From: Ignavibacteria bacterium
GTDB taxonomy: Bacteria; Bacteroidota; Ignavibacteria; Ch128b
NCBI GenBank assembly: GCA_013177855.1
Contig: JABLYA010000001.1
Location: forward strand, 1,527,573-1,591,572
Reading direction: 5' to 3'
Length of the DNA: 64,000 nucleotides
The position numbers and the translations under genes are program-made. The stretch's first letter is position 1. Every line of letters starts with the position of its first letter. The notes beneath the pieces were generated by a model. The model had not been told where the DNA came from. It did no database searches and worked only from the letters and a program-made list of their open reading frames with translations. This document shows positions 10,545 through 51,229 of this stretch, in pieces.

Positions 10545-10601
10545 AAATTTATTTTGAGCTTGTCGAAGGATGACTTTAACGAAAATGTTTTTAATTCTAT
10601 C

Positions 10602-10634
10602 GCTGTCATACTTCGATGAACTCAGTATGACAGC
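10602..10634. repeat. Palindromic hairpin repeat unit (conserved-loop hairpin family) in GH3-GH5 intergenic region
   Basis: gctgtcatacttcgatgaactcagtatgacagc: 11-bp arms around the CTGAG/CGAAG-type loop in reverse orientation; same unit recurs near 39.68 kb and 48.9 kb; partial unit gagcttgtcgaaggatgac at 10553-10571. Confidence 0.6.
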
Positions 10635-10703
10635 ATAAATTGTCATTCTGAATCTTGATTAAATTAATAACTTCGAACGCTAATAAAAATTTGAGAGGAA
10701 AAA

Positions 10704-12701: not shown

Positions 12702-14383
12702 TGAAAATTATAATTCAAAGTTTTTTATTAATCCTTTTTCTGTGCCTGATTTCAATTAGAGCTCAGTCGGTTAATTTCACTTCTTCAAATCTCCCAATAG
12801 TTGTGATAAATACTTTTGGTCAGGAAATTCCAAACGAATATAAAATTCAAGCACGAATGGGAGTAATTTATAATGGTGAAGGTGTAAGAAATTACATTAC
12901 AGATCCATTCAGTCATTACGATGGTTGGATCGGGATTGAATTGCGTGGTTCAAGTTCACTAACATTTCCTAAAAAAAGTTACGCAGTCGAAACAAGAGAC
13001 TCGCTCGGGAACGATAGATCAGTTTCATTGCTCGGTTTCCCATCTGAAGCTGATTGGGTTTTTTATGGTCCATACAATGATAAAACTTTAATTCGCGATG
13101 TTCTTGCTTATAAACTTGCTCGAGATTTGGGTAGATATGCTTCGAGGTCAAAATTTTTTGAACTCGTTATAAATGGCGAATACAAAGGAGTTTATGTTCT
13201 TCTCGAAAAAATTAAAAGAGATGCAAATCGAGTAAATATAAAAAAATTAAATCCAGCTGATACATCAGGCGATGCATTGACTGGCGGATATATCATTAAA
13301 ATTGATAAGCTTGATGGTGAAAATAACGATGGCTGGTATTCTAACTTTCGTCCATTCCCGCAATTAAGTGCAAGAATTTTTTATCAATATCATTATCCAA
13401 AACCCAGTGAAATCGTTGAAGCTCAAAAAAATTACATCAAAGCATGGATTTATGCATTTGAGTCGGCAATGTTTGGACCTTATTACGCCGATTCAATTCT
13501 TGGTTATCAAAAGTATATTGATGTCAATTCGTTTGTTGATTACATTCTCTTAAATGAACTTGTTAAAAATATCGATGCCTACCGATTGAGTACTTTCTTT
13601 TATAAAGATAGGGACAGCCGCAATCCAAAATTATTTGCTGGACCTGTTTGGGATTTCAATTTAGCTTTTGGAAATTGTGATTATTATCAGGCATTCAATT
13701 CAAGTGGATGGTATCTTGAGTATGTTTCGGAATATTCAAACATTCCAAGCTGGGAAAATTATTTCATTCCATTCTGGTGGAAAAAAATTTTTAATGATCA
13801 AAATTTTCGAACTAAATTCAGACAAAGATGGATTGAGCTTAGAAATTCTGTCTGGACAAATGAAAAAATTAATTCTACCATCGATTCGCTTGTTCAATTA
13901 CTTGAAGAATCAAGACAGAGAAACTTTCAGAAATGGCCTGTCATTGGTCAATATGTTTGGCCTAATTACTATGTTGGTCAAACTTACGAAGAAGAAATCA
14001 ACTATCTGAAAAACTGGCTCACATCAAGATTAGCGTGGATGGATTATCAGTTAATTTCTGATGTCGAAAAAGAGAAATCAGAAATTTCAATTAATGACTT
14101 CAAACTTCTACAAAATTATCCGAACCCATTTAATTCAAATACAATAATAAGTTATATCATTCCAGGAAATTTAAACTCACTACAAAAAGTTACTTTGAAA
14201 ATTTATGATGTTCTCGGTAGAGAGATCACAACACTAATTGATGATTATCAAACTGCCGGCTGTTATTCTGTAAATTTTGATATCGAGACAATTAAACAAC
14301 AAAGTATATCGACGAGCGTTTTAATTTGCCAGCTTTTTGTTGGAAATAAAACTCAAACTATCAAAATGCTTTATTTGAAATGA
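12698..14383 (+). CDS. CotH kinase-family protein with T9SS C-terminal domain
   Basis: CotH-like core (YGPYNDKTLIRDVLAYKLARDLGRYASRSKFFELVINGEYKGVYVLLEKIKRD); signal peptide; CTD LLQNYPNPFNSNTIISYIIP; 4-bp overlap with upstream GH5 gene. Confidence 0.65.
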   Translation: MMKIIIQSFLLILFLCLISIRAQSVNFTSSNLPIVVINTFGQEIPNEYKIQARMGVIYNGEGVRNYITDPFSHYDGWIGIELRGSSSLTFPKKSYAVETRDSLGNDRSVSLLGFPSEADWVFYGPYNDKTLIRDVLAYKLARDLGRYASRSKFFELVINGEYKGVYVLLEKIKRDANRVNIKKLNPADTSGDALTGGYIIKIDKLDGENNDGWYSNFRPFPQLSARIFYQYHYPKPSEIVEAQKNYIKAWIYAFESAMFGPYYADSILGYQKYIDVNSFVDYILLNELVKNIDAYRLSTFFYKDRDSRNPKLFAGPVWDFNLAFGNCDYYQAFNSSGWYLEYVSEYSNIPSWENYFIPFWWKKIFNDQNFRTKFRQRWIELRNSVWTNEKINSTIDSLVQLLEESRQRNFQKWPVIGQYVWPNYYVGQTYEEEINYLKNWLTSRLAWMDYQLISDVEKEKSEISINDFKLLQNYPNPFNSNTIISYIIPGNLNSLQKVTLKIYDVLGREITTLIDDYQTAGCYSVNFDIETIKQQSISTSVLICQLFVGNKTQTIKMLYLK

Positions 14384-14844
14384 TAATAAAAAATTTTGTT
14401 CAGGGATCTTATACAGCTCCTCTAAAAATTTCCGGAATGCAATGATTTTTATTTTCTGCTGCGCCTTACTGCTTAATCTTTTTAACCTAAAAATTTGTTA
14501 CCGAGTGTAATTTATTTCGATTTAATGATTACTATTCTCGATTAATATTTCTCAAAGAATTTCCATTCTTATTTCAACTCACCAGTTATATCAAATCCGG
14601 CAATGAAATTCGTTTACTATTTTCATTATACTTAACAAAATTCTTTTTTTACTTCATTGAGCAAGACATATAATTTGTTTTGGGCATTAAAATTCGGGAG
14701 AAATATTTAGCAGATAGTTTTGTTATTCAATAAAAGATTTTAATGGGAAATCTAATAACAGTTCTTTTAATGAAATGTAAAGTCAAATTATTGATTTTGT
14801 TTTTTAGAAAATTTAACTTGACTCAACAAAAGCGGGAGTTCAAA

Positions 14845-16800
14845 ATGAATAAAAATCTTAAACTCATAAAGTTTCTCCCCCTTCTTTTAATCATCTCTTC
14901 TTTAATTTTCACCGGTTTTGGCAGCGAAAAAAACAGAGCAGCGAAAATTAAATCTTTACAGACAGATAGTTACTATCTTAAACTTGACCGTTTTGAATTA
15001 CCTTTTACGAACAATGGAATACTGGCTGATGTGGTAATTTCGTCAAATGAGCCTCAAGCTAAGTTTGATGGCAAACAGGTTATTTTCTCTGGGGGGTTCT
15101 TAATTGGTGGACTAATGTACGCTGGTTCTCCATCTGAGCGTTTTTGGATCAATGGAGTATTCACCAGCTCTCGTGTTGAAGATTATATTCCGGGAAAAGT
15201 TGGTATGGATAAAAACGATCCAAAAGCTAAGCTTTACATTGTTCAAAGTTCAGATCCACCATTTTCTCAAAGCTGGCTGGAGTGGAAAAATGCGGTTGAA
15301 TTAGGAGCAGAATTTTATGACGGTGATAATGATGGTGTTTACAACCCCGTTGATAAAAATGGAAATGGCATCTGGGATGCAGACGAAGATAAACCAAATT
15401 TAATTGGTGATTTCACAGCATGGTGCGTTTATAATGATGGGGTTCCGCAAAATATTCGTCACTTTACATCAATACCACGATTAGGAATTGAAATTCAACA
15501 AACTTTATGGGCATATAAAACAATTCCTAAGCTGGCTAATTCTGTTTTTATTCGATATAGAATTAATTATAAAGGCACTAACGAATTTCCAGATTTAAAT
15601 AAACTCGACAGCGTTATTTTTTCCTTTGTTAACGATTATGATCTTGGTAATTATACTGATGATTTATTTGGTACTGATACTTTGCTGCAATCGAATTATT
15701 GTTATAATGATGGCAGTGATGCTGAATTTGGAAATAATCCTCCTGTTATTATGTCACAGCTTTTGCAGGGACCTTATGCTTTCATCCCTAATGTATCATT
15801 TGTTGATGCAAATGGTAATGGGATTTATGATTCGGGTGATACACCTATTACTTCAGCTAAAATGCTAATTGGAATAAATAAGGTTCAAGAAATTCCCGGT
15901 GCGTTGAATTTAAATATTTCATCATCAAGCTCTCAATTCACAGGTATTGTGGAAATTCCTGAATATGCGTACTGGAATATTATTCAAGGATTAAATCCGG
16001 TTGGTCTAAAATACAATCCTTGTAATTTTGATTACGGAACAGTTGTAGGCGGAGTTAATTGTAATCAAGTCAATCCATATTTCTTGTTTTCGGGTGATCC
16101 TGTTACTAATGTTGGATGGATTAATATTCGGAGTTCTGATGTCCGAGGTTTTCTCAATGTCGGCAGGTTCACACTTGAGAAGAATAAACCAGTTGATGTA
16201 ATAGTTGCTTATGCAATTGGAAGGGGAACTGATCCCATCAATAGTCTTATTGAAACTCGTAAAGTCGCAGCACTAAATAAGTTGTTTTATGAAATGAATT
16301 TTATTCAAACAAAAACATTGCCAACAACAGAATTAAAAATGAGAAGCTTTGAGGATAGATTGGATATATTCTGGCAAACTGCGAATGATTTTCAATTTAA
16401 GGATTTTATGGTTACATCTGCTGGAGATACTTTAATAAATACCGAATTTGAAGCTTATGAGTTGTGGGCTCATTCAACACCTGAGCTTTATTATGGACCA
16501 GATACAAGTCGTTCAAAAAAAGTTGCCGGTTTTGATGTTAAGAATGATATTGAAAGATTGTTTTTTGTGGACGACGATGGAATTACGATTAAAAATGTTT
16601 TCTCAAATTACACTCAACTTGACCCAGTAATTTATTCAAATTCAAATAGAGGATATATTTTGGTTTCTCTCACCGAAAATCCATTTACAGGTAAAAAGTT
16701 GAAGAAAGGGGAAAGACTTTATTTTTCACTTCGAAAAATTTATTTGAATAAAACTTCAACAGAGTTGTTCAGATCAAAGATAAACCCAAAAGTTATTTAG
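14845..16800 (+). CDS. Hypothetical secreted protein with Asp-rich Ca-binding-like loops
   Basis: Start moved to ATG 14845 (in frame with track ORF 14743, preceded by gggag RBS, followed by signal peptide MNKNLKLIKFLPLLLIISSLIFTGFG); motifs DGDNDGVYNPVDKNGNGIWDADEDKP and DANGNGIYDSGDTP. Confidence 0.45.
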   Translation: MNKNLKLIKFLPLLLIISSLIFTGFGSEKNRAAKIKSLQTDSYYLKLDRFELPFTNNGILADVVISSNEPQAKFDGKQVIFSGGFLIGGLMYAGSPSERFWINGVFTSSRVEDYIPGKVGMDKNDPKAKLYIVQSSDPPFSQSWLEWKNAVELGAEFYDGDNDGVYNPVDKNGNGIWDADEDKPNLIGDFTAWCVYNDGVPQNIRHFTSIPRLGIEIQQTLWAYKTIPKLANSVFIRYRINYKGTNEFPDLNKLDSVIFSFVNDYDLGNYTDDLFGTDTLLQSNYCYNDGSDAEFGNNPPVIMSQLLQGPYAFIPNVSFVDANGNGIYDSGDTPITSAKMLIGINKVQEIPGALNLNISSSSSQFTGIVEIPEYAYWNIIQGLNPVGLKYNPCNFDYGTVVGGVNCNQVNPYFLFSGDPVTNVGWINIRSSDVRGFLNVGRFTLEKNKPVDVIVAYAIGRGTDPINSLIETRKVAALNKLFYEMNFIQTKTLPTTELKMRSFEDRLDIFWQTANDFQFKDFMVTSAGDTLINTEFEAYELWAHSTPELYYGPDTSRSKKVAGFDVKNDIERLFFVDDDGITIKNVFSNYTQLDPVIYSNSNRGYILVSLTENPFTGKKLKKGERLYFSLRKIYLNKTSTELFRSKINPKVI

Positions 16801-16874
16801 TTATTACAAAGAGTTTTGGACTAAGGGAGAAAATTTCAGACCTGTACGAATTTAGAGTTGGTGAGTATTTCAAT

Positions 16875-18260
16875 ATGCCTTTAAATTTGATGTCCCCGCC
16901 TATTTCTGCTCAGTTGAATACAACAGAGAGTGAAATTTATTTTGAGGAAGTAGATAATACTCAATTGACAGATGATGAATATCAATTAAGTTTCTTTAAG
17001 GATCTATCTACTACAGATTACTCAATGTTCTGGCGATTAAAAAATTTAACTAAGAACAGAATATTGCTTGACTCACAAAAGGTATATTTCAATTTAGATG
17101 ATAGACCAATTGTTGTTGAAGGGTTGTATCCAAAGATAAGCTGGGTTGAACCAGAAATTAAAAATGTTAATTATAAACCTGAAAACAATAAATGGTTTGG
17201 TGACTTTAGAAGCGAGATTTCGGGTATTTTTTATTTAGGTCCTGAAAAAGTAAAAGGAGTTTCTGCATATAATATTCTTCCATTGGGTAATGTGGGAACA
17301 AAAAAATCCTCCTTAACGACTTTTGATAAATTAAGGAGAATTGAAATTCGTTTTGGCAAATCTCAAAAAGCTTACAGATTTGTCTCAAATTCGTTGGGAA
17401 CAAGATACTTAAGTGGCGCAAGTACTGAAGGGGTATCAGGAATATGGTACCCAGGTGAATATTTTGTTGATGTTCCTTTTCAAGTCTGGATAAAAGATGA
17501 TAGGTTTGGTGAAGAAAAACAACTTACCTGTGGTTTTATAGAAGCAAGAGCACCTTTAGGTGGAAATCCTGATGGTGAATGGGATCCCGGTACAAATATT
17601 AGTTTAACACGAGAATACATTATTATATTTAATCAACCCTACAATCCTTCTGGAAATCAAATGGAGTATGTTGGTTATCTTCCAACAACGGGAACGAAAG
17701 TTTATGCAGATTTGAATGGATGGAATCCACCGGCGGAAGCCAATTTTACACCTGAACAGATTGCACGGGCAAAATCTCCGTGGTTTGATGCTTTGCTTGT
17801 AGTTGGTTTAGAAAGAACTTCAGTTGATACATTTTATAAACCTGGAGATATTTTAACAATACCAATCTCGTATGTAATTACTTCAAGAGATACTTTTTAT
17901 TATAGATCAAAATCAAAAATGAATAAATTAACTCTTGAGGAGAAGAAATCGCAGGTAAGCAAGATTAATGTGTTTCCAAATCCATACTTTGAATGGGAAG
18001 ATTTTAGAGCAGTCAGAAACGGTGTAATAATTTTTTCAAACTTGCCGGAAGAAGTAACTATAAAGATTTATACACTGTCTGGCAATTTAGTTAGAACTTT
18101 GACAGAAAATGATAAATCATCAATAACTTCTCCATTTATCGAATGGGATTTAAGAAATGAGAATGGCAAGAAAGTTGCCGATGGAATTTATCTCGCTCAT
18201 ATTAAAACAAAATTTGGAGATAAGGTTCTAAAATTCTCGATTGTTAAGCAGAAAAGATAA
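16875..18260 (+). CDS. Hypothetical protein with T9SS-like C-terminal domain, paralogous to the C-terminal third of CDS 2253-5375
   Basis: C-terminus KINVFPNPYFEW...VTIKIYTLSGNLVRTL...GIYLAHIKT resembles VVPNPYLGAAAW...TIRIYTLSGQLIKTI...GVYVYHVEA of 2253-5375; no obvious signal peptide at the annotated start. Confidence 0.4.
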   Translation: MPLNLMSPPISAQLNTTESEIYFEEVDNTQLTDDEYQLSFFKDLSTTDYSMFWRLKNLTKNRILLDSQKVYFNLDDRPIVVEGLYPKISWVEPEIKNVNYKPENNKWFGDFRSEISGIFYLGPEKVKGVSAYNILPLGNVGTKKSSLTTFDKLRRIEIRFGKSQKAYRFVSNSLGTRYLSGASTEGVSGIWYPGEYFVDVPFQVWIKDDRFGEEKQLTCGFIEARAPLGGNPDGEWDPGTNISLTREYIIIFNQPYNPSGNQMEYVGYLPTTGTKVYADLNGWNPPAEANFTPEQIARAKSPWFDALLVVGLERTSVDTFYKPGDILTIPISYVITSRDTFYYRSKSKMNKLTLEEKKSQVSKINVFPNPYFEWEDFRAVRNGVIIFSNLPEEVTIKIYTLSGNLVRTLTENDKSSITSPFIEWDLRNENGKKVADGIYLAHIKTKFGDKVLKFSIVKQKR

Positions 18261-39521: not shown

Positions 39522-39581
39522 ATTAATCACACTCCGACTACTTTATAAAAATCTTTTAATTAAACTGATTTTATTTTTTTT

Positions 39582-40555
39582 GTCAGGCTGAGCTTGTCGA
39601 AGCCTGACGACAATTAAACTTAAAGCATTCTTTAAGGTCATACTTCGTCAAGTCTCAGGATGACCTCAAATTTTCGCTGTCATACTGAGTTCATCGAAGT
39701 ATGACGGCGATTATTGAGAACATTTGAGTTAATATCATCCTTCGTCAAGGCTCAGGTTAACAATTCCTTAAAAAAATCATAATGGGTCGCTCCTATGGAG
39801 CTTAAATATTTTTTGTTGGTTTTGCTCTCTACTACAAATAGGTCGCTTCTACAAAGCTTTTAAAGAATAAAATTTAGTAGGTAAGAAAAATAAAAGTCGC
39901 GTAGTGATGAACGATTTGTAGCAGAATAATTACTGAGCCCGAAACAAATTGAAGTTGCATAGCAACGACCTCTTTGTAGAGAAAATTATGAACAACTAAA
40001 AAGCTAAAGTCGCGTAGCGACGACCTATCGTAGATATAATTATAAACCGCATAAAGAATTAAATCCAAAATGGAAGAAATTATTATAGAGAAAAACAATC
40101 ACAAACAAAAAAATAAAAAAATAAAAACCCCGCAGGGGTTTAATGTGAATAGCCCCCAATCGCATTGGGGGGTAAGTGAGAACAAAAAAACAAAGAACCC
40201 CAAAGGGGTTCAATTATAACAGAAATTGTTTTAAACGATCCTAAAAATTCAATTGCAAATCAAACATTAAAAATATTTTGAACCTCTCATTTAACCCCTT
40301 CAGGGTTGGAATTATCTTTTGGCGATATTTACCGAGTGCAACTCGGGGCTAATCATATTCAACTCCTTCGGAGTTGGTGAAAATCAACCAGAATAAGATA
40401 TTGATTACAATTTCATTAACTGATAAATCCAGAATGGATGAAATTATTATAGAAAGAAGAAGTGCGCATAAGAAAAAATCCTGAAGGTATGACATTCCGT
40501 TCGTCGAGGCTCAGGATTACAATTCTCTGTCAGGCTGAGCTTGTCAAAGCCTGAC
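39582..40555. repeat. Repeat-rich module A: conserved-loop hairpins + GTCGC/TGTAG-type repeats + tetraloop hairpin array
   Basis: Contains gtcaggctgagcttgtcgaagcctgac (39582-39608), gtcatactgagttcatcgaagtatgac (39679-39705), degenerate units, GTCGC..TGTAG modules (39780-40040), core 40061-40456 and a terminal hairpin 40529-40555. Confidence 0.75.
40061..40456. repeat. Core element copy A: array of six GC-stem short-loop hairpins bounded by about 35-bp direct repeats
   Basis: Bounding repeats aaatccaaaatggaagaaattattatagagaaaaa (40061-40095) and aaatccagaatggatgaaattattatagaaag (40425-40456); hairpins at 40126-40140, 40153-40172, 40195-40211, 40293-40309, 40332-40346, 40360-40376. Confidence 0.75.
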
Positions 40556-40748
40556 GACATTAAAACTATAAACATTTTTTAGGATTACATTTTTTAATTC
40601 TGAACGATACTGAAGAAAGGTAATTGTCAGAAAAAAGATGAGTTTAAAAAATAAAAGTAAGAGCTGCCCAGTTTTTTTGTTGATGCTCATTTAAGATAGA
40701 GATATTAAATTTTTTCTCTGGACAGCTCTAATTGAAGAGCAATAATTT

Positions 40749-43700
40749 TTATTTCAAATAGACCATTTTCTTTATTGATTTATAATCTCCAGAAATTAAT
40801 TGGTAGAAATATATTCCACTTGGAATTTTGTACTGAGCAGCATCAAAAATAAAGCTATAGATACCTGCTTCTCTTTCTTCATCAATCAATGTAGAGATTT
40901 CTCTGCCAATCACATCGAACAATTTTAACTGAACTCTGGATTTTTCTTTTAATGCAAACTTAATCTTTGTAACAGGATTAAACGGATTTGGATAATTTTG
41001 ATAAAGTTCAGTTCTATCTGGAATTGTAACAGGTGAAAGTTTTAACAGCTTTATGTTTTTATCCTCGATAACTAATTCATCACCGGGCGTAAGTGTTTGG
41101 CTAATCTCTTGATTAGGCTCGCTTTCAACTTTGACTTTTAATTTTGTTGATTTAATTCTAATTGGATATTCTCCCGAGTTTATGATCAAATAATTTTCCT
41201 TATTAACATTTTCAACAAATCGATTTGAAGAAAATCGAACATCAAAAATTTGAGCTGGTGGAGTTGGTGGCAATTCAAACAAATCATTTTCCAAATTGTC
41301 ACTCAGATAAAGTTTTACGCTTCGATCTTGATTATCTGTAATTATTAATTCACCAGCGTCACTTAATATTTTTTCAAGTGTTGAGAATTTAGACTTTACT
41401 TTCCCCATATTTTGATTAAAAATAATTTTCCCATCTTGAGAAACTTTTATCCAGTAACCTTTGCCTTTTTGAATTGTGCTGGCAACAAAATATCCATTCT
41501 GGTAACCGAAGAAATAAGATTGCAAAATGTCAGGCGGATTCGTTGTAATCGAATTCACTGAAACATCATTTTCAAATCCACCAATTAAATTCCATCCAGC
41601 TTTTACATTAGCAAAAGGATTTTCAATTGGTAAACCGCAAACCGTAACTTGAGTTGAGTTTGGATATTTCAACCAATAACCTTTTCCATTTGAAAGAGTA
41701 TCAACTGTGTAGTAACCGATTGATTGACTAAATGCAAACGCTGATGATGTTGCATTTGGAAAGATATCAGTCTTTGACATATTTGTTCTTGCAACAGGAA
41801 CAGAAACAATATTCCATCCTGAATTTAAAGAAAAGTTAACGCACAACTCAGTTCTAATCGAAAAAGTATTGTCGCTAATATCGAAGACATTTGGATTTTC
41901 AAGAGAAGAAATTTTAATCAAACATTGTTCTGAAGTAGAACCCGTTACTAACCATTCATAAGAACCAGATTGAGCAGCAATGTTTGTTGCAATTAGATTC
42001 CATGTGCTTCCATTATTAGTCGAAATTTCTATTTTCACATTGTTTACATTCGTACTTGTCCACTCAATTAATTTATGTTGATTCACATACCAGATTTCAC
42101 CGCCATTTGGTTTTGTAACTTGAATTGAACTTGCTTGAACAACTACACCACCAGAGAGCAGCGCAACATTACCAAGATTTGACCCAACCAAAATTTCTTT
42201 TGAACCATTATTATCAAGATCAGGGACAACAGCAACTTCTCTTGCCTGAGTATTTCCACCAAATGAATAAAGAGCCAGTTCATTACCATTGCTGCCATTT
42301 ACAATTAGAGCTCCTTGATTTTGTACTGCAAACACAACATCATCGGAGCCGTCTCCATTTAAGTCTGGAATTATATCAACACCCATAGTATTGCCAGTTG
42401 ATTTGTACCATAGAGTATTTCCATTTGCACCATCAACACAAACAGCGCCGCCTGCTAAAATTGAAATTACAACTTCATCAACTCCATCTCCGTTTACATC
42501 TCTTAAGATTTTCATTTGAGTTGGTGCACCGCCGCCGGTTGAAAATGTCCACAGAGGTAAACCAGTTGTTCCTTTCAATCGATAAACTGGGCCCCAGAAA
42601 GCTCCAGCAATTACATCAGGTTTTTGACCTGGAACTGGAAATACTAAAACTTCTTTTGCACCGCCAGTATTCGAACCAACTTGATATGCCCAGATTAAAT
42701 TTCCATTTGCTCCGCTTAATGCCTGAAATTGATAAACTGGTTCACCAACTGTTGCAATGACATCTGGAATTCCATCATTGTTTATATCTGGAATTGCGGT
42801 AACTCCATGAGTAAATCCACCGACAAATCTTTGCCAGATAATTTGTCCATTTGGTCCATTGAAAAGATAAACCGATCTTCTTCCAGCTACTCCGCCTGAT
42901 TGAGTTGCACTTGCAGCTGCTATTACATCTGGAATACCATCGTTATTAAAATCGGTTGTTGCATCGACACCAGTTATATCACCTAAAGCAAAACTATCGG
43001 GATGATCAGTTCCAAATTTCCATAACATTTGACCTGTTTTGCCATTTAAAGCATAAACGGACTCATTTCCACCACCTGTTCCGATTACTACATCATTAAA
43101 GCCATCGCCATTTAAGTCACTTGCGATTGAAAGCGCTTTTTGATAAGAATAATCTCCGGTTGAGCCAATAGAACCTGCACTTGAATTTGAAATGTAAGTA
43201 TTAAAAGACCACAGAGTATCATTCCCGCCTGAAGAATTTCCATTTAATGCTGCAGTCCAATAGTTTTCAGTGCAGACAATTACATCAGATTTGCCATCAC
43301 CGGTTATATCGTTGATAGCTCTAATTCCTTTTATGGTTCTGTATGTGTTTGAAATTGGATGATTGGGCATTGTATGAGTCCATAAAGGTTGAGCAAGTGA
43401 AAGATTCTGAATTTCGCCTGTGCCTGTTAAAAAAATCTTTGCTTCTGGAGCATTTGTAGAATTGTTGATGATTCTTAAAGTATCAGAAATTAATCCTGAA
43501 GATCTTGGATTGAACCACACTCTTACATATTTAAAACTATTAGCAGGTAAATTTAAAGGAAAGATATCTGGTTCAAGATAAAAATCTGGAATTGATGTAT
43601 TCCATGAAAAAATGTTAATTGGTTGATTGCTTAAGTTTTCAATTTTCATCCACCAGAAATTTGTGCTTCCAACTCTTTTGGTTCCAAAATTATAAGACGG

Positions 43701-44885
43701 CGGAACACTAATTACTCCCTGACCATAAATTCCATTTCCAACCAATCTTATCACCTGCGCAGGTCGTGATAAATCATTGTGATAAATATAGAGATGAGAA
43801 CTATCCGAACCGTATGCGATTGGCGAAAAGAAGATTTGAAAGCTCAGATTACCATTTGGTTGAATGATTGCTGGTGTTGTTAGATTAGTTGTAAATCTTG
43901 ATGAGTAGAAAAATCTTAGGCTGTCAATTACGAGATTTGCAGTTCCATTATTAACAATTGTTGCGGTAATCTGTCCTGAATTTCCAAGAACAACATTACC
44001 AAAATCAAAAAATTTTGTTGGGATGTTAATAGATGGACTTCCACCGCCAATTACATATTTAAAGATTTGTCTGCCCGATGATGCACCAACAGGTTCAGCA
44101 AGGAGGTAAAGGTAATTTCCATCCCAAGCAAGTCCTCTTGGATTTTGTCGTTGTCCGGGTGTTTCAGGAAGCGGGAATGAAAAAAGAGTATCTTTTGTAA
44201 ATCTGTTTACAGCATAAATTCTTTCCGGGTCTCCATCAAATCCATCCATTACATAAAATATTGTATCTCCTTTGACTGCAATACCCTGAGGTTGTAAACC
44301 AAAAACTGGAATTGTATCTGTAACCTGACTTGTGTTTATATCAATCCGATAAAGTGCAGCACTTGAATTTGGATAGTAAACTGAAGCCCATATTTGTCCG
44401 TCATAAGCAAGTCCGCCAAGATAAACGCTTGAAGCAGTAGGCCAATTCAATGAATCAAGTATCTGACCATTTTTAGCAATTCTAATAATTCTACATCTTG
44501 CTGTGTATCTTTGAACAAAGTAAAAAACATTTCCATCTGTTGTTAAACCCTGTGATGAGTTCACATGTGAACTGCTAAAGATTACACTATCTCGAATTAT
44601 ACCAAGCGTATCAACTGCATAGAGTTTTGCCCCTAAATTTCCAGTCGAATATGAACTTGAAACCCACAAAAGTCCATCTCGAATTGTTAAACCATATCCA
44701 TAGTTAAAGAAATTGTCGTTGGGCAAATTGATTACCTGGACAAGTGTTTGCCCGTTTAAAATTTTAGTGAGCAACAAATAGATTATTAAAGTTATAATGA
44801 ATGATATTATGAAACTCTTTTTTGGTTTTTGTGGGTTTGTAGTTTTTCTATTAGAAAAAAGCGGCAGGAAATTATCTGATTTCAT
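40749..44885 (-). CDS. Very large secreted FG-GAP/VCBS-repeat beta-propeller protein with T9SS C-terminal domain
   Basis: FG-GAP-like repeats (DLNGDGFNDVVIGTGGG, DINNDGIPDVIATVG, DVNGDGVDEVVISI, DLNGDGSDDVVFAV, DLDNNGSKEILVGS); CTD LYQNYPNPFNPVTKIKFAL...KLFDVIGREI; 1378 aa. Confidence 0.6.
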   Translation of the reverse strand: MKSDNFLPLFSNRKTTNPQKPKKSFIISFIITLIIYLLLTKILNGQTLVQVINLPNDNFFNYGYGLTIRDGLLWVSSSYSTGNLGAKLYAVDTLGIIRDSVIFSSSHVNSSQGLTTDGNVFYFVQRYTARCRIIRIAKNGQILDSLNWPTASSVYLGGLAYDGQIWASVYYPNSSAALYRIDINTSQVTDTIPVFGLQPQGIAVKGDTIFYVMDGFDGDPERIYAVNRFTKDTLFSFPLPETPGQRQNPRGLAWDGNYLYLLAEPVGASSGRQIFKYVIGGGSPSINIPTKFFDFGNVVLGNSGQITATIVNNGTANLVIDSLRFFYSSRFTTNLTTPAIIQPNGNLSFQIFFSPIAYGSDSSHLYIYHNDLSRPAQVIRLVGNGIYGQGVISVPPSYNFGTKRVGSTNFWWMKIENLSNQPINIFSWNTSIPDFYLEPDIFPLNLPANSFKYVRVWFNPRSSGLISDTLRIINNSTNAPEAKIFLTGTGEIQNLSLAQPLWTHTMPNHPISNTYRTIKGIRAINDITGDGKSDVIVCTENYWTAALNGNSSGGNDTLWSFNTYISNSSAGSIGSTGDYSYQKALSIASDLNGDGFNDVVIGTGGGNESVYALNGKTGQMLWKFGTDHPDSFALGDITGVDATTDFNNDGIPDVIAAASATQSGGVAGRRSVYLFNGPNGQIIWQRFVGGFTHGVTAIPDINNDGIPDVIATVGEPVYQFQALSGANGNLIWAYQVGSNTGGAKEVLVFPVPGQKPDVIAGAFWGPVYRLKGTTGLPLWTFSTGGGAPTQMKILRDVNGDGVDEVVISILAGGAVCVDGANGNTLWYKSTGNTMGVDIIPDLNGDGSDDVVFAVQNQGALIVNGSNGNELALYSFGGNTQAREVAVVPDLDNNGSKEILVGSNLGNVALLSGGVVVQASSIQVTKPNGGEIWYVNQHKLIEWTSTNVNNVKIEISTNNGSTWNLIATNIAAQSGSYEWLVTGSTSEQCLIKISSLENPNVFDISDNTFSIRTELCVNFSLNSGWNIVSVPVARTNMSKTDIFPNATSSAFAFSQSIGYYTVDTLSNGKGYWLKYPNSTQVTVCGLPIENPFANVKAGWNLIGGFENDVSVNSITTNPPDILQSYFFGYQNGYFVASTIQKGKGYWIKVSQDGKIIFNQNMGKVKSKFSTLEKILSDAGELIITDNQDRSVKLYLSDNLENDLFELPPTPPAQIFDVRFSSNRFVENVNKENYLIINSGEYPIRIKSTKLKVKVESEPNQEISQTLTPGDELVIEDKNIKLLKLSPVTIPDRTELYQNYPNPFNPVTKIKFALKEKSRVQLKLFDVIGREISTLIDEEREAGIYSFIFDAAQYKIPSGIYFYQLISGDYKSIKKMVYLK

Positions 44886-45137
44886 AAGTCACCTCAATTA
44901 AATGTTATGACCTGGTTCAAATTAATTAATTATTTTTTTAAAATCCTGGAAAAGATTTGAATGAAAATGAGGGTATTTGATTTTCTTTCTCTATAAATCT
45001 TATAAGGGAAGATTATTGTATTAACAGGCTCGAGGTAATTTGAATTTAAATGAAAGTTCTTTATTAAAAGTCTTAATGGATTTGAATTTCAAATAAAAGC
45101 TGACTACTTTTGAATTGTAAACATAAGGGGTTCAAAA

Positions 45138-45317
45138 ATGAAGAATAAAGTTATTTTAATCCTTCTCATTGTCGCCGCTCTAAGTATTGTAATAGGACTA
45201 ATTGGAAAATTTTCCGGCTCTTTTATTGTTTTTGCAAATGCAACTTGGCATATGTTCGCTCAAACCTGTTTATTGGCTGCCATTGCATTTGGGGTCGGTA
45301 AACTCCTGGAGAAATAA
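45138..45317 (+). CDS. Small predicted membrane protein (59 aa, two hydrophobic helices), not in the supplied ORF track
   Basis: ATG at 45138 preceded by aagggg 8 nt upstream; MKNKVILILLIVAALSIVIGLIGKFSGSFIVFANATWHMFAQTCLLAAIAFGVGKLLEK; TAA stop at 45315-45317. Confidence 0.35.
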   Translation: MKNKVILILLIVAALSIVIGLIGKFSGSFIVFANATWHMFAQTCLLAAIAFGVGKLLEK

Positions 45318-46279
45318 AATTTAATTTGTCTAAAAATTTTTCAGATTAATTCTGCTTAAAAAAGTATTAATTCTTCTCTTTCATTAAAATCATTATTAAA
45401 CACAACTCTTGAAAGTTGCATTGGGTGAAGAGCTTTAAATTCGGGGAATTGTAAATCATTAATTTCAAATTGAACCAGGCTTCTGTGCAGCTGGCATCTT
45501 CAAATGTAAAAGTAAATCTATCATAATCATCTGGTTGAGCTGGTGTCCTTTTACAGGTTAAGGTTGTTAGAGCTGTGGTAAACAAAAAATGAAAAATGAA
45601 AATTTTTTTAAAAGACTAAAAATAAATCCTCCTGTGATATAGGAGAAAAATAAGAATTAATAAAATGAAATCCTTTGCTTGTGATTTTGTAAACAAGAAT
45701 TTTAAAGCTGTTTAATATATGCGGGGGGCGGACATTAGAGGACTTACACTGATTATTGTATTTGAGATTTTAATAATCATCTTTTTCGCTAAAAGGCTTA
45801 ATGGGTATTTACTAATCTAAAAACATTTTTCAATTATGTTTTTATGAGATTTATCTATAACAATACTCAGATTAAAAAATATTGGGATATGAATATTTAT
45901 TGAATGAAATTCATAGAATGTAAATGTTATACAAATAGTTGTTCTTTCTAAAAGAGATTTATTTGTTTCCGGGAAAATTGCTTCGCTTAACTTACAATAG
46001 ATTTTATTTTTGAAAATTTTCCGTTAAAAAATTATTGACCTTAAATGATGATGCACATAAAAAATAGTATTCTTAGCTTATAGAAATTTATCTAAGATGG
46101 AAAGTACAGACACAGAACTGTTCAGTTGTTATTTTTCATTTATCTGTTATTTTTTCGGTATGAGTTAAATTATACTCTTTAATATCAAAATTCCATTTAC
46201 ACAAATTTTAAAGACTCTGAGGTTTGCTTAATTTCATTGGACAAATGTAAGATTAAAGTTAAAATTTTTAATCAATTTC

Positions 46280-48454
46280 TTATTTCATCAAAATAAATTT
46301 TTTAGTTTGAACCAAAGAATTGTTTTTCAATTGATAAATATAAACTCCTGTACTTAGATTATATTGATCGGCATTGAATTCAATTTCGTATTCCCCGATT
46401 TGTTTATGTTCATTCACAAGAGTTACAATTTCCTGGCCGAGTAGGTTGTAGATTCTTAAGCTTGTAAATCCAGAGATAGGGATTGAGAATTTAATTTTTG
46501 TTTTTGAATTAAACGGATTAGGATAGTTTTGAAAGAGAATAAATTTTTTTTCAATGTAATTATTATCATAAACATTGGTTGGTAGATTAACGCCACTTAT
46601 ACCATTTTCATTAAAAATTGCGAGACCCCAGTCTTGGCCATAGTCACTGGCAATCCATTTATTATTGAATTTATCAATTTTTATATCCACAATGCTTCGG
46701 TTAGTTGTTTGATCAAATAAAGTAAAATTTGTCCCATCATATTTCAATAATCCATCATCAGTTCCTATCCAGAGATTATTAAATTTATCAACGGTAATAA
46801 CATTAATATAATTATTAGTGAAAGGTGCGTTATTTGAGTTAAATACAATAAATGTTGAGTCATTTATCCATTTTAATAATCCCATTCTTCTTGTACCAAG
46901 CCAGCGTGTACCATATAAATCTTTAACAAAATAAGTAATTTCTTGACTTGGCATTTTAGTATTAGTTGTATCATAGATTTTCCATTCGTTATTGTATAGT
47001 AAAACCAGCCCTTTAAATGTACAAATCCAAATCGAATCGCCGTAAGGAATTACCAACATACCATTATTTGAGGGTAAAGGAGAATTAGATGTGTTAAAAA
47101 AATAATAATTATTTAAGCTATCAACTTTCAAAACTCCACTTCCTACGGGTGCAATTATCCATTTATTTCTTGACTTATCAATGTTCATTCTTGGATATTT
47201 GACAGCAATTAAAGGAGTAGAGTATGAACTAAAAGAATAACCATCAAAACTGATTAACCCTTTTCCAACCATATATAACCAGATAATGTTGTTACTATCA
47301 ATTGCAGATATAAAATGATTTGGATTAACATTAAATGTGTCTGAGATTTTCCAATAATACCAATTAAATCCATCATACTTTATAAGAGCATTATAAGTAT
47401 TATATAAACTGAATGATAACCATACATTTTCGTTCTTGTCGATAATAATGTTGTATACATCCTGTCGTAAATATTGCGAGGTATCAAATCTAATGAACAA
47501 CCATTGATCTGAATCTTTACTTAGATTTCTTGAAATAAACAGAGGTATCTGAAATGGTTTAAAATTATTGTCACCAGTTAAATTAATTGATTGCTTTTGG
47601 ATTTCAGGATTTATCGTGATGGATTTTATGGGCGAAGGATTACTTGACATAAGATTTGTATTTATTGTCCAGACGCGATATTCAACAGTAATTGAATTAT
47701 TTCCCCCATTCCAGGTAATATCATAATCAATGAAATGATTTTCGTTTGTTTGATTTAATTTAAACCAGTTACTGTTATTTTTTCTTCTTTCTATTAAAAA
47801 TCCTGTATAAAATTCTTTACATTCCCAAAAAAGAAAAGGGTGGTTATCATAATTATTAATATTAAGCTCAATAATTTGTGGCGGTTCAAAATATTTTGTG
47901 ACGGGTAAGCCTTGATTTTTTATCTCCCAAACTTTCAATAATGAACCTGCCTTAAATGTGTACCAATTAGTTTTATCGACACTATAATTTAATGTATTTG
48001 TACCAAAATCAAATTTGATAAAAATATCAGGATTATAGCTGTTTGATACACTACCACTCCATCTACAATCCCTTGTGTCCAGATAAAAATAAAGATTGTT
48101 ATTTTTTGAATTAATTATTTTATAAAATCCATATGTGATTACAGGGGAATAACCACTTCTATAAGAAAACCAGCAGTTCCATTTCGATGGATCATTATTA
48201 CTGATCCCAGTAGTTTCTAATTCACTGTTAATTAAACTCGAGTCGTTAGTAATTGAAAAAATAGTGTCAGATGGATTAATCCAGGTAATTCTTTCACTTT
48301 CAAGAAAATATTTAACCTTTTCGTTTTCATCAACACCAAATGTACCTACAAACAAAACGCCTTCAGTAATTTTTTCTTGAGATAATAAATTAAAATAGGA
48401 TATGAATAATAAAAGGAGTGTGAAAAATTTTTTCATATTATATCTCCTAAACAA
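46280..48454 (-). CDS. Secreted beta-propeller (two-component-regulator-propeller-like repeats) protein with T9SS C-terminal domain
   Basis: Repeats of the type NNLWIGTDDGLLKYDGTNFTLF, NKWIASDYG, RWLGTRRMGLLKW; CTD ILFQNYPNPFNSKTKIKFSIP...RIYNLLGQEI; real start may be the internal Met of MKKFFTLLLLF. Confidence 0.55.
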   Translation of the reverse strand: MFRRYNMKKFFTLLLLFISYFNLLSQEKITEGVLFVGTFGVDENEKVKYFLESERITWINPSDTIFSITNDSSLINSELETTGISNNDPSKWNCWFSYRSGYSPVITYGFYKIINSKNNNLYFYLDTRDCRWSGSVSNSYNPDIFIKFDFGTNTLNYSVDKTNWYTFKAGSLLKVWEIKNQGLPVTKYFEPPQIIELNINNYDNHPFLFWECKEFYTGFLIERRKNNSNWFKLNQTNENHFIDYDITWNGGNNSITVEYRVWTINTNLMSSNPSPIKSITINPEIQKQSINLTGDNNFKPFQIPLFISRNLSKDSDQWLFIRFDTSQYLRQDVYNIIIDKNENVWLSFSLYNTYNALIKYDGFNWYYWKISDTFNVNPNHFISAIDSNNIIWLYMVGKGLISFDGYSFSSYSTPLIAVKYPRMNIDKSRNKWIIAPVGSGVLKVDSLNNYYFFNTSNSPLPSNNGMLVIPYGDSIWICTFKGLVLLYNNEWKIYDTTNTKMPSQEITYFVKDLYGTRWLGTRRMGLLKWINDSTFIVFNSNNAPFTNNYINVITVDKFNNLWIGTDDGLLKYDGTNFTLFDQTTNRSIVDIKIDKFNNKWIASDYGQDWGLAIFNENGISGVNLPTNVYDNNYIEKKFILFQNYPNPFNSKTKIKFSIPISGFTSLRIYNLLGQEIVTLVNEHKQIGEYEIEFNADQYNLSTGVYIYQLKNNSLVQTKKFILMK

Positions 48455-48683
48455 AATCCAAACAAATATATTTTATTTTTTTTTAAAAAACAAATAAGCG
48501 TTAAGTATATATGAAAGCGGCTGATATATTTAAAAATGCTTAAATATGTTTTTTGTATTGGTCTTATTGTTACAGCCAATGTTTCTGAAACAAATTAAAT
48601 ATTTTTATTGTCAACAATTTTTAAAAACGTTTGTTTGAATATTTGACAAGCTCTGCCTTAGATTGAGCTTTTAGAAATTAATT

Positions 48684-49740
48684 GCTGTCATACTTCGATG
48701 AACTAAGTACGACAAAGAAGGGAATGTCATCCTGAGCTTGTCGAAGGGAATGTCATCCTGAGCCCCGACGAAGGATGACACAAAAGAATGTTTTAAATTT
48801 CATTGCTGTCAGGATTCGACTGGCTCAGCCTGACAAAGAATTGGCATCCTGAGGTCAGTCGAAGGATGACCTGAAAGAATATTTTATGTTTGATCGCTGT
48901 AATACTTCGATGAACTCAGTATGACAGCGGAATTGTCAACCTTAGCCCCGACGAATATAATGTCATCCCTTCAGGATTTTTTTATGGGTGCTTGTTTTTT
49001 TCTATAATAATTTCATCCATTCTGGATTTAATTTTCAATTAATCAAAAATAAATCAATATCTTTTTCTGATTGATTTACATCAACTCCAAAGGAGTTGAA
49101 TATGATTAACCCCGAGTTGCACTCGGGGAAATATTGTCAAAAGATGTTTCCAACCCTGAAGGGGTTGAATGTGAATTTCAAAATTTTTTGATGTCTGTTC
49201 TGCAATTGAATTTTTAAGATCGTTTAGAACAAATTCTGTTATAATTGAACCCCTTTGGGGTTCTGTGGGTTTTTGTTCTCATTTACCCCCAATCCGATTG
49301 GGGGCTATTCACATTAAACCCCTGCGGGGTTTTTATATTTTTTGTTTTTTATGTGTAAAGGTTTTTTCTATAATAATTTCATCCATTCTGGATTTAATTT
49401 TTATGCGGCACATAATTATTTCTACAGGGAGGTCGTTGCTGCGCAACTTTAATTTTTTTTCGGGCTTAGTAATTTTTTGAATACAAAGAGTCTATCGCAA
49501 CGCGATTACACATTTTTAGTTTTATCATTTTTATTCTGAAAATAGAACAACGCTATTTTATTTCTTTCAAGTTTGTTTTAATTATTTCATTTTTTTATGG
49601 TTTACTTTGAAATAAAAAATCATTTAGATAGATCTTCTTTCTATTGAACTTAAAAAATCTTCCTTGGAAGCGACCTATTTGTAGAGAAAGAACCAAACAA
49701 AAAATATCAAAGCTCTATCGGAGCGACCTATTAACATTAG
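48684..49740. repeat. Repeat-rich module B, inverted relative to module A
   Basis: Conserved-loop hairpins (e.g. gtcatcctgagccccgacgaaggatgac 48752-48779), core 48997-49402 that is the reverse complement of 40061-40456 by eye (hairpin order and loops inverted), then GTCGC/TGTAG-type modules to about 49740. Confidence 0.75.
48997..49402. repeat. Core element copy B (reverse-complement orientation of copy A)
   Basis: Bounding repeats ttttctataataatttcatccattctggatttaatttt at both ends; hairpins 49081-49099, 49109-49127, 49151-49167, 49247-49263, 49286-49304, 49317-49331 are reverse complements of those in copy A, in reversed order. Confidence 0.75.
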
Positions 49741-49907
49741 CTGTGAAAAACTGAATTTTAAAATATTTTTATTATCAATGGTGAATTAATAAACATTCTC
49801 AATTTTCTGAAAATTTGGAGAGAAATTTACGATCAATCAGATTTTATCAAGTATAAAAATTCTGTCTATGATTAAATCTTTTGATTGAAAAGGGGAGTGC
49901 TTTTTAA

Positions 49908-49963
49908 TTTTAATAAAAAAACAAAAAATCCTTTCTCCACTCTTTAGAAGCAGAGAAAGGATA
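49908..49963 (-). terminator. Candidate rho-independent terminator downstream of icd
   Basis: Minus-strand hairpin atcctttctc...gagaaaggat followed by a U-rich run (plus-strand A-run 49908-49927). Confidence 0.55.
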
Positions 49964-49978
49964 AATTAAATCAACAAA

Positions 49979-51229
49979 TTACATATGATCAACTATGTTC
50001 TTACCGAATTCAGAACATTTAATTTCAGTTGCGCCTTCCATCAATCGGGCAAAATCATAAGTTACTCGTTTGCTTGCAATTGCACCGCTGATTCCTTTTA
50101 TGATTAAATCAGCAGCTTCCGTCCAGCCCATATATCTAAACATCATTTCTCCAGATAAAATTACAGACGAAGGATTTACTTTATCCAGTCCTGCATATTT
50201 TGGAGCGGTTCCGTGAGTTGCTTCAAAGATTGCGTGACCCGATTCGTAATTGATATTTGCACCTGGTGCAATTCCAATTCCTCCGACCTGAGCGGCTAAT
50301 GCATCGGAAATATAATCACCATTTAAGTTCATCGTTGCAATCACATCGTATTCGGCAGGGCGAGTTAAAATTTGTTGTAAGAAGTTATCGGCAATTGCAT
50401 CTTTAATTAAGATTTTTCCTTCAGGAACATTTCCCTGACATTCATCCCAAGTTACAACTTGATCACGAAATTCTCTTGTTGCAAGAGCATAACCCCAGTT
50501 TCTAAATGCACCTTCAGTAAATTTCATAATGTTGCCTTTGTGAACGAGTGTAACGCTTTTTCGATTGTTTTTAATTGCGTAATTAATTGCAGCACGAACA
50601 AGTCTTTCTGTCCCTTCTCGTGAGATTGGTTTAATTCCAATTCCACTTGTATTGGGGAAACGAATCTTTTTTACGCCCATTTCGTTTTGTAGAAATTCAA
50701 TGACTTTTTTTGCTTCAGGTGATTCTGCTTCCCATTCAATTCCTGCGTAAATATCTTCTGTGTTCTCTCTGAAAATTACCATATCAACAAGTTCAGGATG
50801 TTTGACAGGCGAAGGGACGCCAGGGAAATATTGAACTGGTCTCAAGCAGACATAAAGATCAAGTAACTGTCTTAATGCAACATTAATTGATCTAATTCCA
50901 CCGCCAACAGGAGTTGTCATTGGACCTTTAATTGCAATTAAATATTCTTTAATGGCTTCAAGAGTTTCGTCGGGAAGCCAGGTGTTTGGTCCATAGACTT
51001 CGTTTGATTTTTCACCAGCATAAACTTCCATCCAGACAATTTTTCTTTTTCCACCGTAAGCTTTTTCAACTGCTTTATCAAATACATATTGGGCTGCTCG
51101 CCAAATGTCGGGACCGGTTCCATCTCCTTCAATGAAAGGGATAATTGGTTTATCAGGCACATTTAGTTTTCCGTCCTGAATTGTAATTTTTTCACCTTCA
51201 GTGGGCACTTTGATTTTGTTGTACTTCAT
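49979..51229 (-). CDS. icd: NADP-dependent isocitrate dehydrogenase
   Basis: Typical prokaryotic Icd N-terminus ([39 protein letters not shown]) and isocitrate/isopropylmalate dehydrogenase motifs; 416 aa. Confidence 0.9.

Follow-up and report, generated by a model that had tools for sequence, protein, structure and literature searches.

The window, by which we mean the whole 64-kb stretch of Ignavibacteria DNA analyzed here, holds two repeat-rich arms, which consist almost wholly of several kinds of small hairpin repeat. The stretch that separates them carries a 59-aa open reading frame (ORF) and two genes for T9SS-secreted proteins, one of 1378 aa with FG-GAP repeats and one of 724 aa; outside the arms are pncB and pncA on the left and icd and the rnf genes on the right. 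A preliminary description had reported an array of six GC-rich hairpins bounded by direct repeats (DRs) in the left arm, and both hairpins and repeats are indeed in place, with the loop limits then given one base off in three cases, without consequence. This array, the core, is found as two copies in the 64-kb window, as had also been noticed: copy A (40060-40458), which lies between convergent genes, and copy B (48996-49401), inverted and about 90% identical to the first. The window ORFs examined include no transposase, integrase, RAYT or cas gene, and GC skew does not switch here.

The features of the locus are listed below. The hairpins are numbered hp1 to hp6, and bit scores refer to R1, a covariance model built from 15 aligned copies of the two-hairpin module described further on.

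39560 to 40600, no strand: left arm, about 1 kb, repeat-rich, containing copy A; it carries GTCA...TGAC hairpin units, CTAC-N-hairpin units, a DR, the core, a DR, a small hairpin and another GTCA unit.
39641 to 48706, no strand: segment inverted in the conspecific assembly GCA_029907405.1, where only 40962-48706 is retained; it holds the two T9SS-cargo genes and the 59-aa ORF, and its breakpoints fall within hairpin units of the GTCA family, outside the core.
40060 to 40094, plus: copy A outer DR, a small hairpin ATCCA-AAA-TGGA followed by GAAATTATTATAGAG, with 3-4 positions unlike the other three DRs.
40121 to 40175, minus: copy A module P1, made of hp2' CCCCCAAT-GCG-ATTGGGGG, linker CTATTCACATT, hp1' AAACCCC-TGC-GGGGTTT and a T-run; 68.7 bits; terminator-like site.
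40125 to 40141: copy A hp1, aaacccc-GCA-ggggttt.
40153 to 40171: copy A hp2, cccccaat-CGC-attggggg.
40195 to 40211: copy A hp3, gaacccc-AAA-ggggttc.
40195 to 40214, minus: hp3 as a single second-hairpin half-unit, GAACCCC-TTT-GGGGTTC plus a T-run; 20.2 bits at model positions 32-51; terminator-like site.
40215 to 40287, no strand: copy A central A/T-rich spacer, separating the two mirror halves.
40288 to 40308, plus: hp4 as a single second-hairpin half-unit; 20.8 bits.
40294 to 40308: copy A hp4, aaccc-CTTCA-gggtt.
40326 to 40380, plus: copy A module P2, made of hp5 CCGAGT-GCA-ACTCGG, linker CTAATCATATT and hp6 CAACTCC-TTC-GGAGTTG; 64.5 bits; homologous to P1, with four compensatory pair changes.
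40332 to 40346: copy A hp5, ccgagt-GCA-actcgg.
40360 to 40376: copy A hp6, caactcc-TTC-ggagttg.
40424 to 40458, plus: copy A inner DR, identical to both copy B DRs and to the solo copies at loci L009, L010, L011 and L012.
48660 to 49760, no strand: right arm, about 1 kb, containing copy B; inverted relative to the left arm, with 74-89% identity by part.
48996 to 49035, minus: copy B inner DR, 40 nt.
49078 to 49132, minus: copy B module P2'; 68.4 bits.
49147 to 49194, minus: copy B hp4' unit, with a conserved AAATTCACATT flank (as ATTCACATT in the comparison with copy A hp4) and a degenerate first hairpin; 34 bits.
49244 to 49263, plus: copy B hp3' half-unit; 20.2 bits; terminator-like site.
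49282 to 49336, plus: copy B module P1', followed by a T-run; 69.2 bits; terminator-like site.
49362 to 49401, minus: copy B outer DR; the stretch 49036-49401, made up of the core and one DR, is absent from the conspecific metagenome-assembled genome (MAG) GCA_029907405.1.

The two cores account for 16 of the 20 perfect GC-rich hairpin records of the whole 64 kb, and the DR pattern has four matches in the window, compared to none in 100 shuffles. The DRs of copy A are 35 nt long and 89% identical to each other, and the 40-nt DRs of copy B are 100% identical. Folding gave a z-score of about −4.9 on each strand. No frame in the core is open or conserved between the copies, and this holds for the two ORFs that had been called spurious (39874-40098 on the minus strand and 49265-49480 on the plus strand). 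A scan for tRNA and tmRNA found none, and the core matches no known Rfam family, either at gathering thresholds over the whole window or at permissive E-values over the region. The earlier characterization of the core as structured, non-coding and repeat-bounded is borne out.

Each core proves to be an inverted duplication of a half of about 105 nt containing three hairpins. The left hp1-hp2-hp3 aligns with the reverse complement of hp6-hp5-hp4 with a score of 16-17, compared to 1.8 ± 1.2 and 2.3 ± 1.4 for shuffles and to 2-4 in direct orientation, and the linker lengths are the same in both halves. The six hairpins therefore form three homologous pairs, hp1/hp6, hp2/hp5 and hp3/hp4, and the statement that every stem is different was wrong. 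Between the homologous hairpins of the two halves there are four compensatory base-pair changes (A-T to C-G and C-G to T-A in hp1/hp6, C-G to G-C and A-T to G-C in hp2/hp5) and no disruptive ones. Copies A and B differ at only 1 of 81 stem positions, compared to 41 of 229 linker positions (Fisher p = 4e-5); no covariation is seen between them because their stems are identical, and it appears only between halves and across organisms. The minimum-free-energy fold also contains long-range pairs, which we do not take for real structure: they are a by-product of the mirror duplication, since the compensatory changes keep the local hairpins.

The basic unit of the core is a module of about 55 nt, in which the linker CTAWTCAYATT joins a variable hairpin, with an 8-bp stem and a 3-nt loop, to a second hairpin of the form (A/C)AACCCC-loop-GGGGTT(G/T). 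The 11-nt linker is conserved and single-stranded and the second hairpin is conserved in sequence, while the first hairpin is free in sequence but covaries. Each half contains one two-hairpin module and one extra second hairpin alone, giving two modules and two half-units per core; R1 finds modules in the two cores only within the window, with hp3 and hp4 as half-units on opposite strands. All of these face outward from the A/T-rich center, so that the left half is the right half inverted and diverged. The cluster as a whole is flanked on both sides by the DR, a small hairpin repeat of another kind. What had been proposed as a single novel element of 400 nt is thus a mirror-image cluster of a two-hairpin module and single-hairpin half-units; the structured nature of the unit stands.

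The module is not confined to this genome. A repeat-derived 57-aa ORF (40040-40213 on the minus strand, overlapping an ORF that had been called spurious) was compared with 1.84 billion proteins and matched only other repeat-derived ORFs, from many metagenomes, which carry the reiterated motif AIHI[KQ]PL[RQ]G[FW]. The DNA of two matched loci, L024 and L025, contains the same two-hairpin module. A follow-up protein search added 15 more repeat-derived ORFs, one of them in a Beggiatoa/Parabeggiatoa MAG, and at three further loci (L026 to L028) as many as ten modules form an array, either in direct tandem or inverted; the tandem arrays run head-to-tail with a 66-nt period. The foreign assembly GCA_029935755.1 has module clusters on at least two contigs. 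At the foreign arrays the strand of the module is inconsistent with respect to the flanking genes, and the gene tables of L024 to L028 show no transposase, RAYT, integrase or cas gene beside the arrays. An exact-pattern scan with a 23-mer from the core gave no matches in metagenome or viral collections, a BLAST search of the core against phages and plasmids gave nothing, and we found no paper containing the module sequence.

Fifteen distinct modules could be aligned, and they covary strongly: 94.7% of cells are paired, both sides have changed in 8 of 15 pairs, and 27 cells are compensatory. The covariation score of 0.375 compares with 0.156 ± 0.021 for shuffles, none of 500 of which reached it, and with at most 0.116 for slid controls. 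The U·G pairs and C·A mismatches give conflicting hints as to which strand of the module is active. The alignment provides a definition and a working covariance model for a strongly covarying two-hairpin repeat that is common to distant lineages and is missed by the current Rfam.

The architecture of the module is that of the Acido-Lenti-1 motif (RF01687), as judged against the Rfam consensus and seed. Both have a covarying 8-bp first hairpin with a loop of 3-4 nt, a conserved linker of about 12 nt starting with CUA, and a short second hairpin with a pyrimidine triloop like UUC. Acido-Lenti-1 likewise occurs as many intergenic copies, sometimes in tandem, as well as near mobile elements. The differences are in the details. 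The Rfam model has an 8-bp hairpin, the linker CUAauuUAUgcC and a 5-bp hairpin with a UUC loop; here the linker is CUAUUCAYAUU, as compared to CUAnnUUAUGnC in Acido-Lenti-1, and the second hairpin is longer (7 bp) and conserved in sequence as CAACCCC/GGGGUUG. The taxa are Ignavibacteria and Beggiatoa-like bacteria here and Acidobacteria and Lentisphaerae for Acido-Lenti-1, which is sometimes found near group II introns (Weinberg et al. 2010, PMC2864571). RF01687, whose gathering threshold is 37 bits, gives no match to the core modules even at E ≤ 10. It scores 36.2 bits, just below that threshold, on a unit directly beside the L026 array that R1 also matches, and a weak 18.9 bits on a CTAC-N-hairpin half-unit in the left arm of the window (40008-40033, minus strand). 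With the same architecture and core modules that the Rfam model misses, we treat the core module as a distinct variant related to the Acido-Lenti-1 motif and not as a member. Miropsin and karilysin, two of the KLIKK proteases, are T9SS cargo. In Tannerella, Acido-Lenti-1 has been reported downstream of the miropsin and karilysin genes, beside long unannotated stretches (2026 preprint, bioRxiv 10.64898/2026.02.09.704811), a setting that resembles the present one beside T9SS-cargo genes. The comparison links the repeat to an orphan motif whose function has been a puzzle since 2010.

Rfam classes Acido-Lenti-1 as a probable (candidate) sRNA, and the equivalent architecture suggests that each module might be a small structured RNA of the same type, the core then being a divergent pair of sRNA genes or a processed precursor. 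Such an RNA would have a 5' hairpin, a conserved linker serving as seed or protein-binding site, and a 3' hairpin doubling as intrinsic terminator. The covarying first hairpin and the conserved, unpaired linker are consistent with this, as are the cUUCGg-type loops of hp6 and many foreign copies and the T-runs found here after hp1' and hp3' and at L024 after the second hairpin. Other observations weigh on the opposite side: neither the central spacer nor the stretches ahead of the modules contain a promoter-like site, the Beggiatoa-type copies lack a T-run, the 66-nt head-to-tail arrays leave no room for promoters, and the orientation to neighboring genes is mixed. Near-identical linker and hairpin sequence across phyla would also be unusual for sRNAs, and the innermost pair of the second hairpin is frequently a C·A mismatch, which on the opposite strand is a G·U pair; this makes the strand uncertain and counts against an sRNA. 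We consider this account, the main rival of the reading favored below, possible but doubtful.

The T-runs bear on a second alternative. Terminator-like sites are about seven-fold enriched (7 compared to an expected 1.0 ± 1.2, and 5 compared to 0.8 ± 1.0), and hp1 and hp3 on the minus strand and hp4 on the plus strand have the GC stem and T-run of an intrinsic terminator. The hairpins could accordingly be pictured as a local stack of terminators and RNA-stabilizing 3'-UTR hairpins of the convergent genes, especially the 1378-aa T9SS gene, duplicated together with the intergenic region. The position of copy A between convergent genes agrees with this picture, and so does the gene order before inversion, reconstructed below, which puts both arms downstream of the 1378-aa gene. 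It is nevertheless distinctly unlikely in our estimation: hp2, hp5 and hp6 have no T-run, the ordinary terminators of this genome are of a different kind, with stems of 12-15 bp, the T-run hairpins of copy B point away from any gene, and the same module and linker occur in other phyla without T-runs. With three of six hairpins lacking the T-run and all of them belonging to a conserved cross-phylum module, the earlier view that the array is unlike simple terminators is upheld.

Comparison with conspecific genomes showed that the arms coincide with structural differences. Window positions 37561-58436 are 99.2% identical to GCA_037481975.1, and GCA_029907405.1 (locus L012), a conspecific MAG, is about 97% identical to the window. 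In L012 a segment matching 40962-48706 lies in the opposite orientation directly after pncA, with its left junction inside a GTCA-family hairpin unit, and copy A together with the 3' end of the 1378-aa gene is replaced by 3.5 kb that include an IS. With the inversion undone, the two arms follow each other in direct tandem, downstream of the 1378-aa gene. On the icd side of L012 the right arm has one DR and no core: L012 20957-21081 corresponds to window 48911-49035 and L012 21042-22157 to window 49362-50478, and these two matches have exactly the 40-nt DR in common. The junction of the window is confirmed by a short-read contig from a different sample, and in several other contigs the same IS end abuts a GTCA hairpin loop; short-read assemblies of this species break at these repeat nests. 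The nests therefore coincide with an inversion of about 8-9 kb, a precise deletion of 366 bp and IS insertions between conspecific genomes, and these differences cluster around genes for secreted surface proteins.

The clean single-DR site of L012, with unchanged flanks, could be read instead as an empty site, the core plus DR being a miniature non-autonomous integrative element or MITE that inserted at a pre-existing DR and duplicated it, either as attL/attR-like sites or by a very long staggered cut. Like MITEs such as ERIC/IRU and Correia elements, the core is non-coding, a few hundred base pairs long, an imperfect palindrome whose halves are inverted repeats, and present or absent between strains. 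A 29-nt stretch of the DR is also found, identical in sequence but without the core, in three other Bacteroidota-group MAGs of the genome collection, in each case as a single intergenic copy in unrelated contexts, with a second small hairpin 20-25 nt further on. These solo copies, the only ones to come from an exact-pattern scan that gave nothing in metagenome or viral collections, indicate that the DR is a small repeat in its own right rather than a target duplication. At 35-40 nt it far exceeds any MITE target duplication (2-10 bp), and the core halves are only about 60% identical and made of sub-repeats. Moreover, copies A and B are 10-18% diverged, with linkers 82% identical, while the strains are 97-98% identical; both diverged copies already have the DR-core-DR arrangement and the strains differ by only 2-3%, so the arrangement must predate the strain split. 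With 40-nt perfect repeats flanking a palindrome, a precise deletion between the DRs is a simpler account of the single-DR state than an unfilled insertion site, and the divergence of the copies leaves nothing that shows recent movement. Since no recombinase and no other whole-core copy were found either, insertion of the whole core as a MITE is highly unlikely. The initial suggestion of a mobile element thus fares poorly for the whole core; at the level of the module, both it and the alternative suggestion of a structured RNA are still viable.

The reading that we favor, with a probability of about 0.5, is that the core forms a compound cluster, palindromic within itself, in which copies of a dispersed structured repeat make up a REP/BIME-like mosaic and act as hairpins of DNA or RNA. 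Like REP, BIME and REPIN elements, the units are short, GC-rich extragenic hairpins in mosaic arrays and inverted dimers between convergent genes, and R1 places them in alternating or inverted orientation in the cores and at L027; the known systems can terminate transcription and serve as hot spots of recombination and IS insertion. We base this preference on the mirror homology, the conservation of the stems, the occurrence of the module across organisms with its covariation, the match to the Acido-Lenti-1 layout, the mixed orientation, the precise absence of the core and one DR from L012, and the lack of a conserved ORF. We infer that the module would act through its hairpins in single-stranded DNA or in transcripts, and that it may have spread as a selfish or semi-domesticated repeat, presumably by means of a protein supplied in trans, for which an HUH/RAYT-type enzyme is the obvious candidate. 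Clusters would then grow through local tandem and inverted duplication, and their side effects here might include instability of the DNA around them and bidirectional transcription termination or insulation, with the T-runs of hp1 and hp3 on one strand and that of hp4 on the other.

Several points count against a REP-like nature. REPs are defined by a conserved tetranucleotide, GTAG or GTGG, that lies 0-2 nt 5' of the foot of the hairpin (PMC6006769), and this tag is absent from both strands of the module, whose unit is instead a pair of hairpins with a conserved linker. No RAYT/TnpA-REP gene is present among the window ORFs or in the gene tables of L024 to L028, nor are the transposase, integrase and cas genes sought there; two copies in 64 kb are few, the sequence of the species covered being this window and about 40 kb more, and the metagenome and viral scans and the phage and plasmid BLAST brought no further whole core. 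The divergence of copies A and B leaves no sign of recent movement, L012 is better accounted for by a deletion, and the covariation, the conserved single-stranded linker, the UUCG-type loops and the T-runs after the second hairpin in this lineage fit RNA equally well.

A broader form of the favored reading can be put forward, which we regard as speculative and rather unlikely. The module and its Acido-Lenti-1 relatives might be the cis-acting substrate of an unrecognized mobility or processing system, either an HUH-type enzyme acting on single-stranded DNA or an RNA-based system, that would move the module between phyla (Ignavibacteria, Beggiatoa-like Gammaproteobacteria, Acidobacteria, Lentisphaerae and Bacteroidales), with its clusters both marking and promoting the rearrangement of gene cassettes for T9SS-secreted proteins. 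Should the module indeed turn out to serve a dedicated enzyme as substrate, or to be an RNA whose partner is defined, Acido-Lenti-1 would come within reach of experiment.

Candidates from further afield were rejected. A dif/Xer site, a diversity-generating retroelement, a retron, an integron attC site and a replication origin lack their defining sequences or genes here, and GC skew, as said, does not switch. Neither the promoter scan nor the orientation of the DR in other genomes supports a promoter in the central spacer or at the TATAAT of the DR. The notion that the DR is a diverged member of the module family is likewise unsupported by R1 and remains a weak idea.

The DR itself, at 29-40 nt and with a small hairpin, has something of the appearance of a CRISPR repeat, and the two DRs of a core might be taken for a degenerate CRISPR-like mini-array with one over-long spacer. 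We give this practically no credence, and the original remark that the locus is unlike a CRISPR array is borne out: such arrays have at least three regularly spaced repeats with short unique spacers and usually cas genes, whereas here there are two repeats 330 nt apart, the would-be spacer is itself made of structured repeats, the window ORFs examined include no cas gene, and no CRISPR repeat model rises above noise. The reverse complement of the DR, AATTTC with a 5-bp stem, bears a loose likeness to type V-A CRISPR repeats, a Cas12a-like resemblance that we judge to be due to chance. The DR also contains a mini-ORF, MDEIIIE, which we consider meaningless.

The segment that carries the two T9SS-cargo genes lies in the opposite orientation in the conspecific MAG GCA_029907405.1 (window 39641-48706 versus 9731-17475 of its locus, L012), and the left inversion junction falls within a GTCA...TGAC hairpin unit, where the hybrid sequence 'aggtcat|cgaagtatgacagc' is seen when the window and L012 are compared. 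With the inversion undone in this comparison, both arms, the ~1-kb inverted repeat-rich regions that each hold one hairpin core, follow the 1378-aa gene on its downstream side as a direct tandem. The 1.4 kb between these two T9SS genes, at 44886-46279, is gene-poor and carries none of the locus's hairpin repeats; its sole ORF, at 45138-45317, is predicted to encode a 59-aa membrane protein.

The GTCA family of hairpins is separate from the two-hairpin modules of the cores. Its GTCA...TGAC ends are conserved, its inner stems covary (GTCAGGC, GTCATAC, GTCATCC), and its conserved loop, GAG-N6-7-CGAA, appears as the complement, TCG-N6-7-CTC, in copies of opposite orientation. One copy is found outside the arms, immediately upstream of another T9SS-cargo gene.

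Hairpin units in the window
10602-10634, GTCA-family hairpin
39580-39710, GTCA-family hairpins
40529-40555, GTCA-family hairpin
48686-48929, GTCA-family hairpins
39780-40035, CTAC-N5-7-hairpin units, e.g., CTACAAATAGGTCGCTTCC...
49420-49740, CTAC-N5-7-hairpin units

An insertion sequence with a DDE_Tnp_1/DUF772 transposase (L012 19439-20957) has the terminal sequence GCGACACAGTCTC, which also forms the first 13 nt of four other loci (L015, L016, L017, and L021). In different samples this end adjoins a GTCA-family hairpin loop, at two distinct sites in all, which suggests that these hairpins serve as targets for the element in the way that REPs do for some IS elements.

Where the 1378-aa T9SS gene encodes its C-terminal sorting domain, identity to the conspecific gene falls to 84% and similarity is then lost (window 40749-41134 versus L012 17303-17682), which suggests that recombination exchanged the 3' end of this gene together with the downstream arm. 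On the pncB side, Kelch and S8-peptidase T9SS genes precede pncB in GCA_037481975.1 and a JGI contig, whereas the window has a lysine-aminomutase-like gene there; the differing sequence lies left of window 37561 and at 21073-22157 of L013 and 1108-4634 of L002, two further loci compared. Given this difference and the divergence of L002 from the window past 39951, there are additional rearrangement breakpoints around the locus. Logan short-read contigs of the species terminate within DR, the direct repeat bounding each core, or GTCA repeats (the ends of L004, L005, L006, and L001); these repeat nests are break points of its assemblies.

The DR core, AATCCAGAATGGATGAAATTATTATAGAA, which contains the mini-ORF MDEIIIE, recurs with 100% identity in three further MAGs, which carry the labels Bacteroidetes, Ignavibacteriales, and Chitinophagales. 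All three copies are solo, and each is followed 20-25 nt further on by a second hairpin, e.g., ACCCAGAATGGGTGACAT.

Solo DR copies in MAG loci
L009 6316-6346
L010 1220-1249
L011 745-773

Upstream of hisG, the Ignavibacteriales-like MAG loci L009 (5990-6125) and L010 (900-1030) have what looks like a classical his attenuator: a leader peptide rich in histidine (..HTHHHLHHHP..) and then a terminator hairpin.

The linker and second hairpin of the Rfam motif Acido-Lenti-1 are the counterpart of the CTAC-N5-7-hairpin units, and the unit at 40008-40033 scores 18.9 bits against that motif. Similar CTAC-type units form a tandem array at 1490-1660 of L025, a metagenomic contig with a related module array. 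Long arrays of ~60-nt tandem repeats (taattcgttgtactcagtcacagacaaattcgcttatccgcg) lie on either side of that module array (1-400 and 700-1080), and the contig also encodes a CptA-family toxin.
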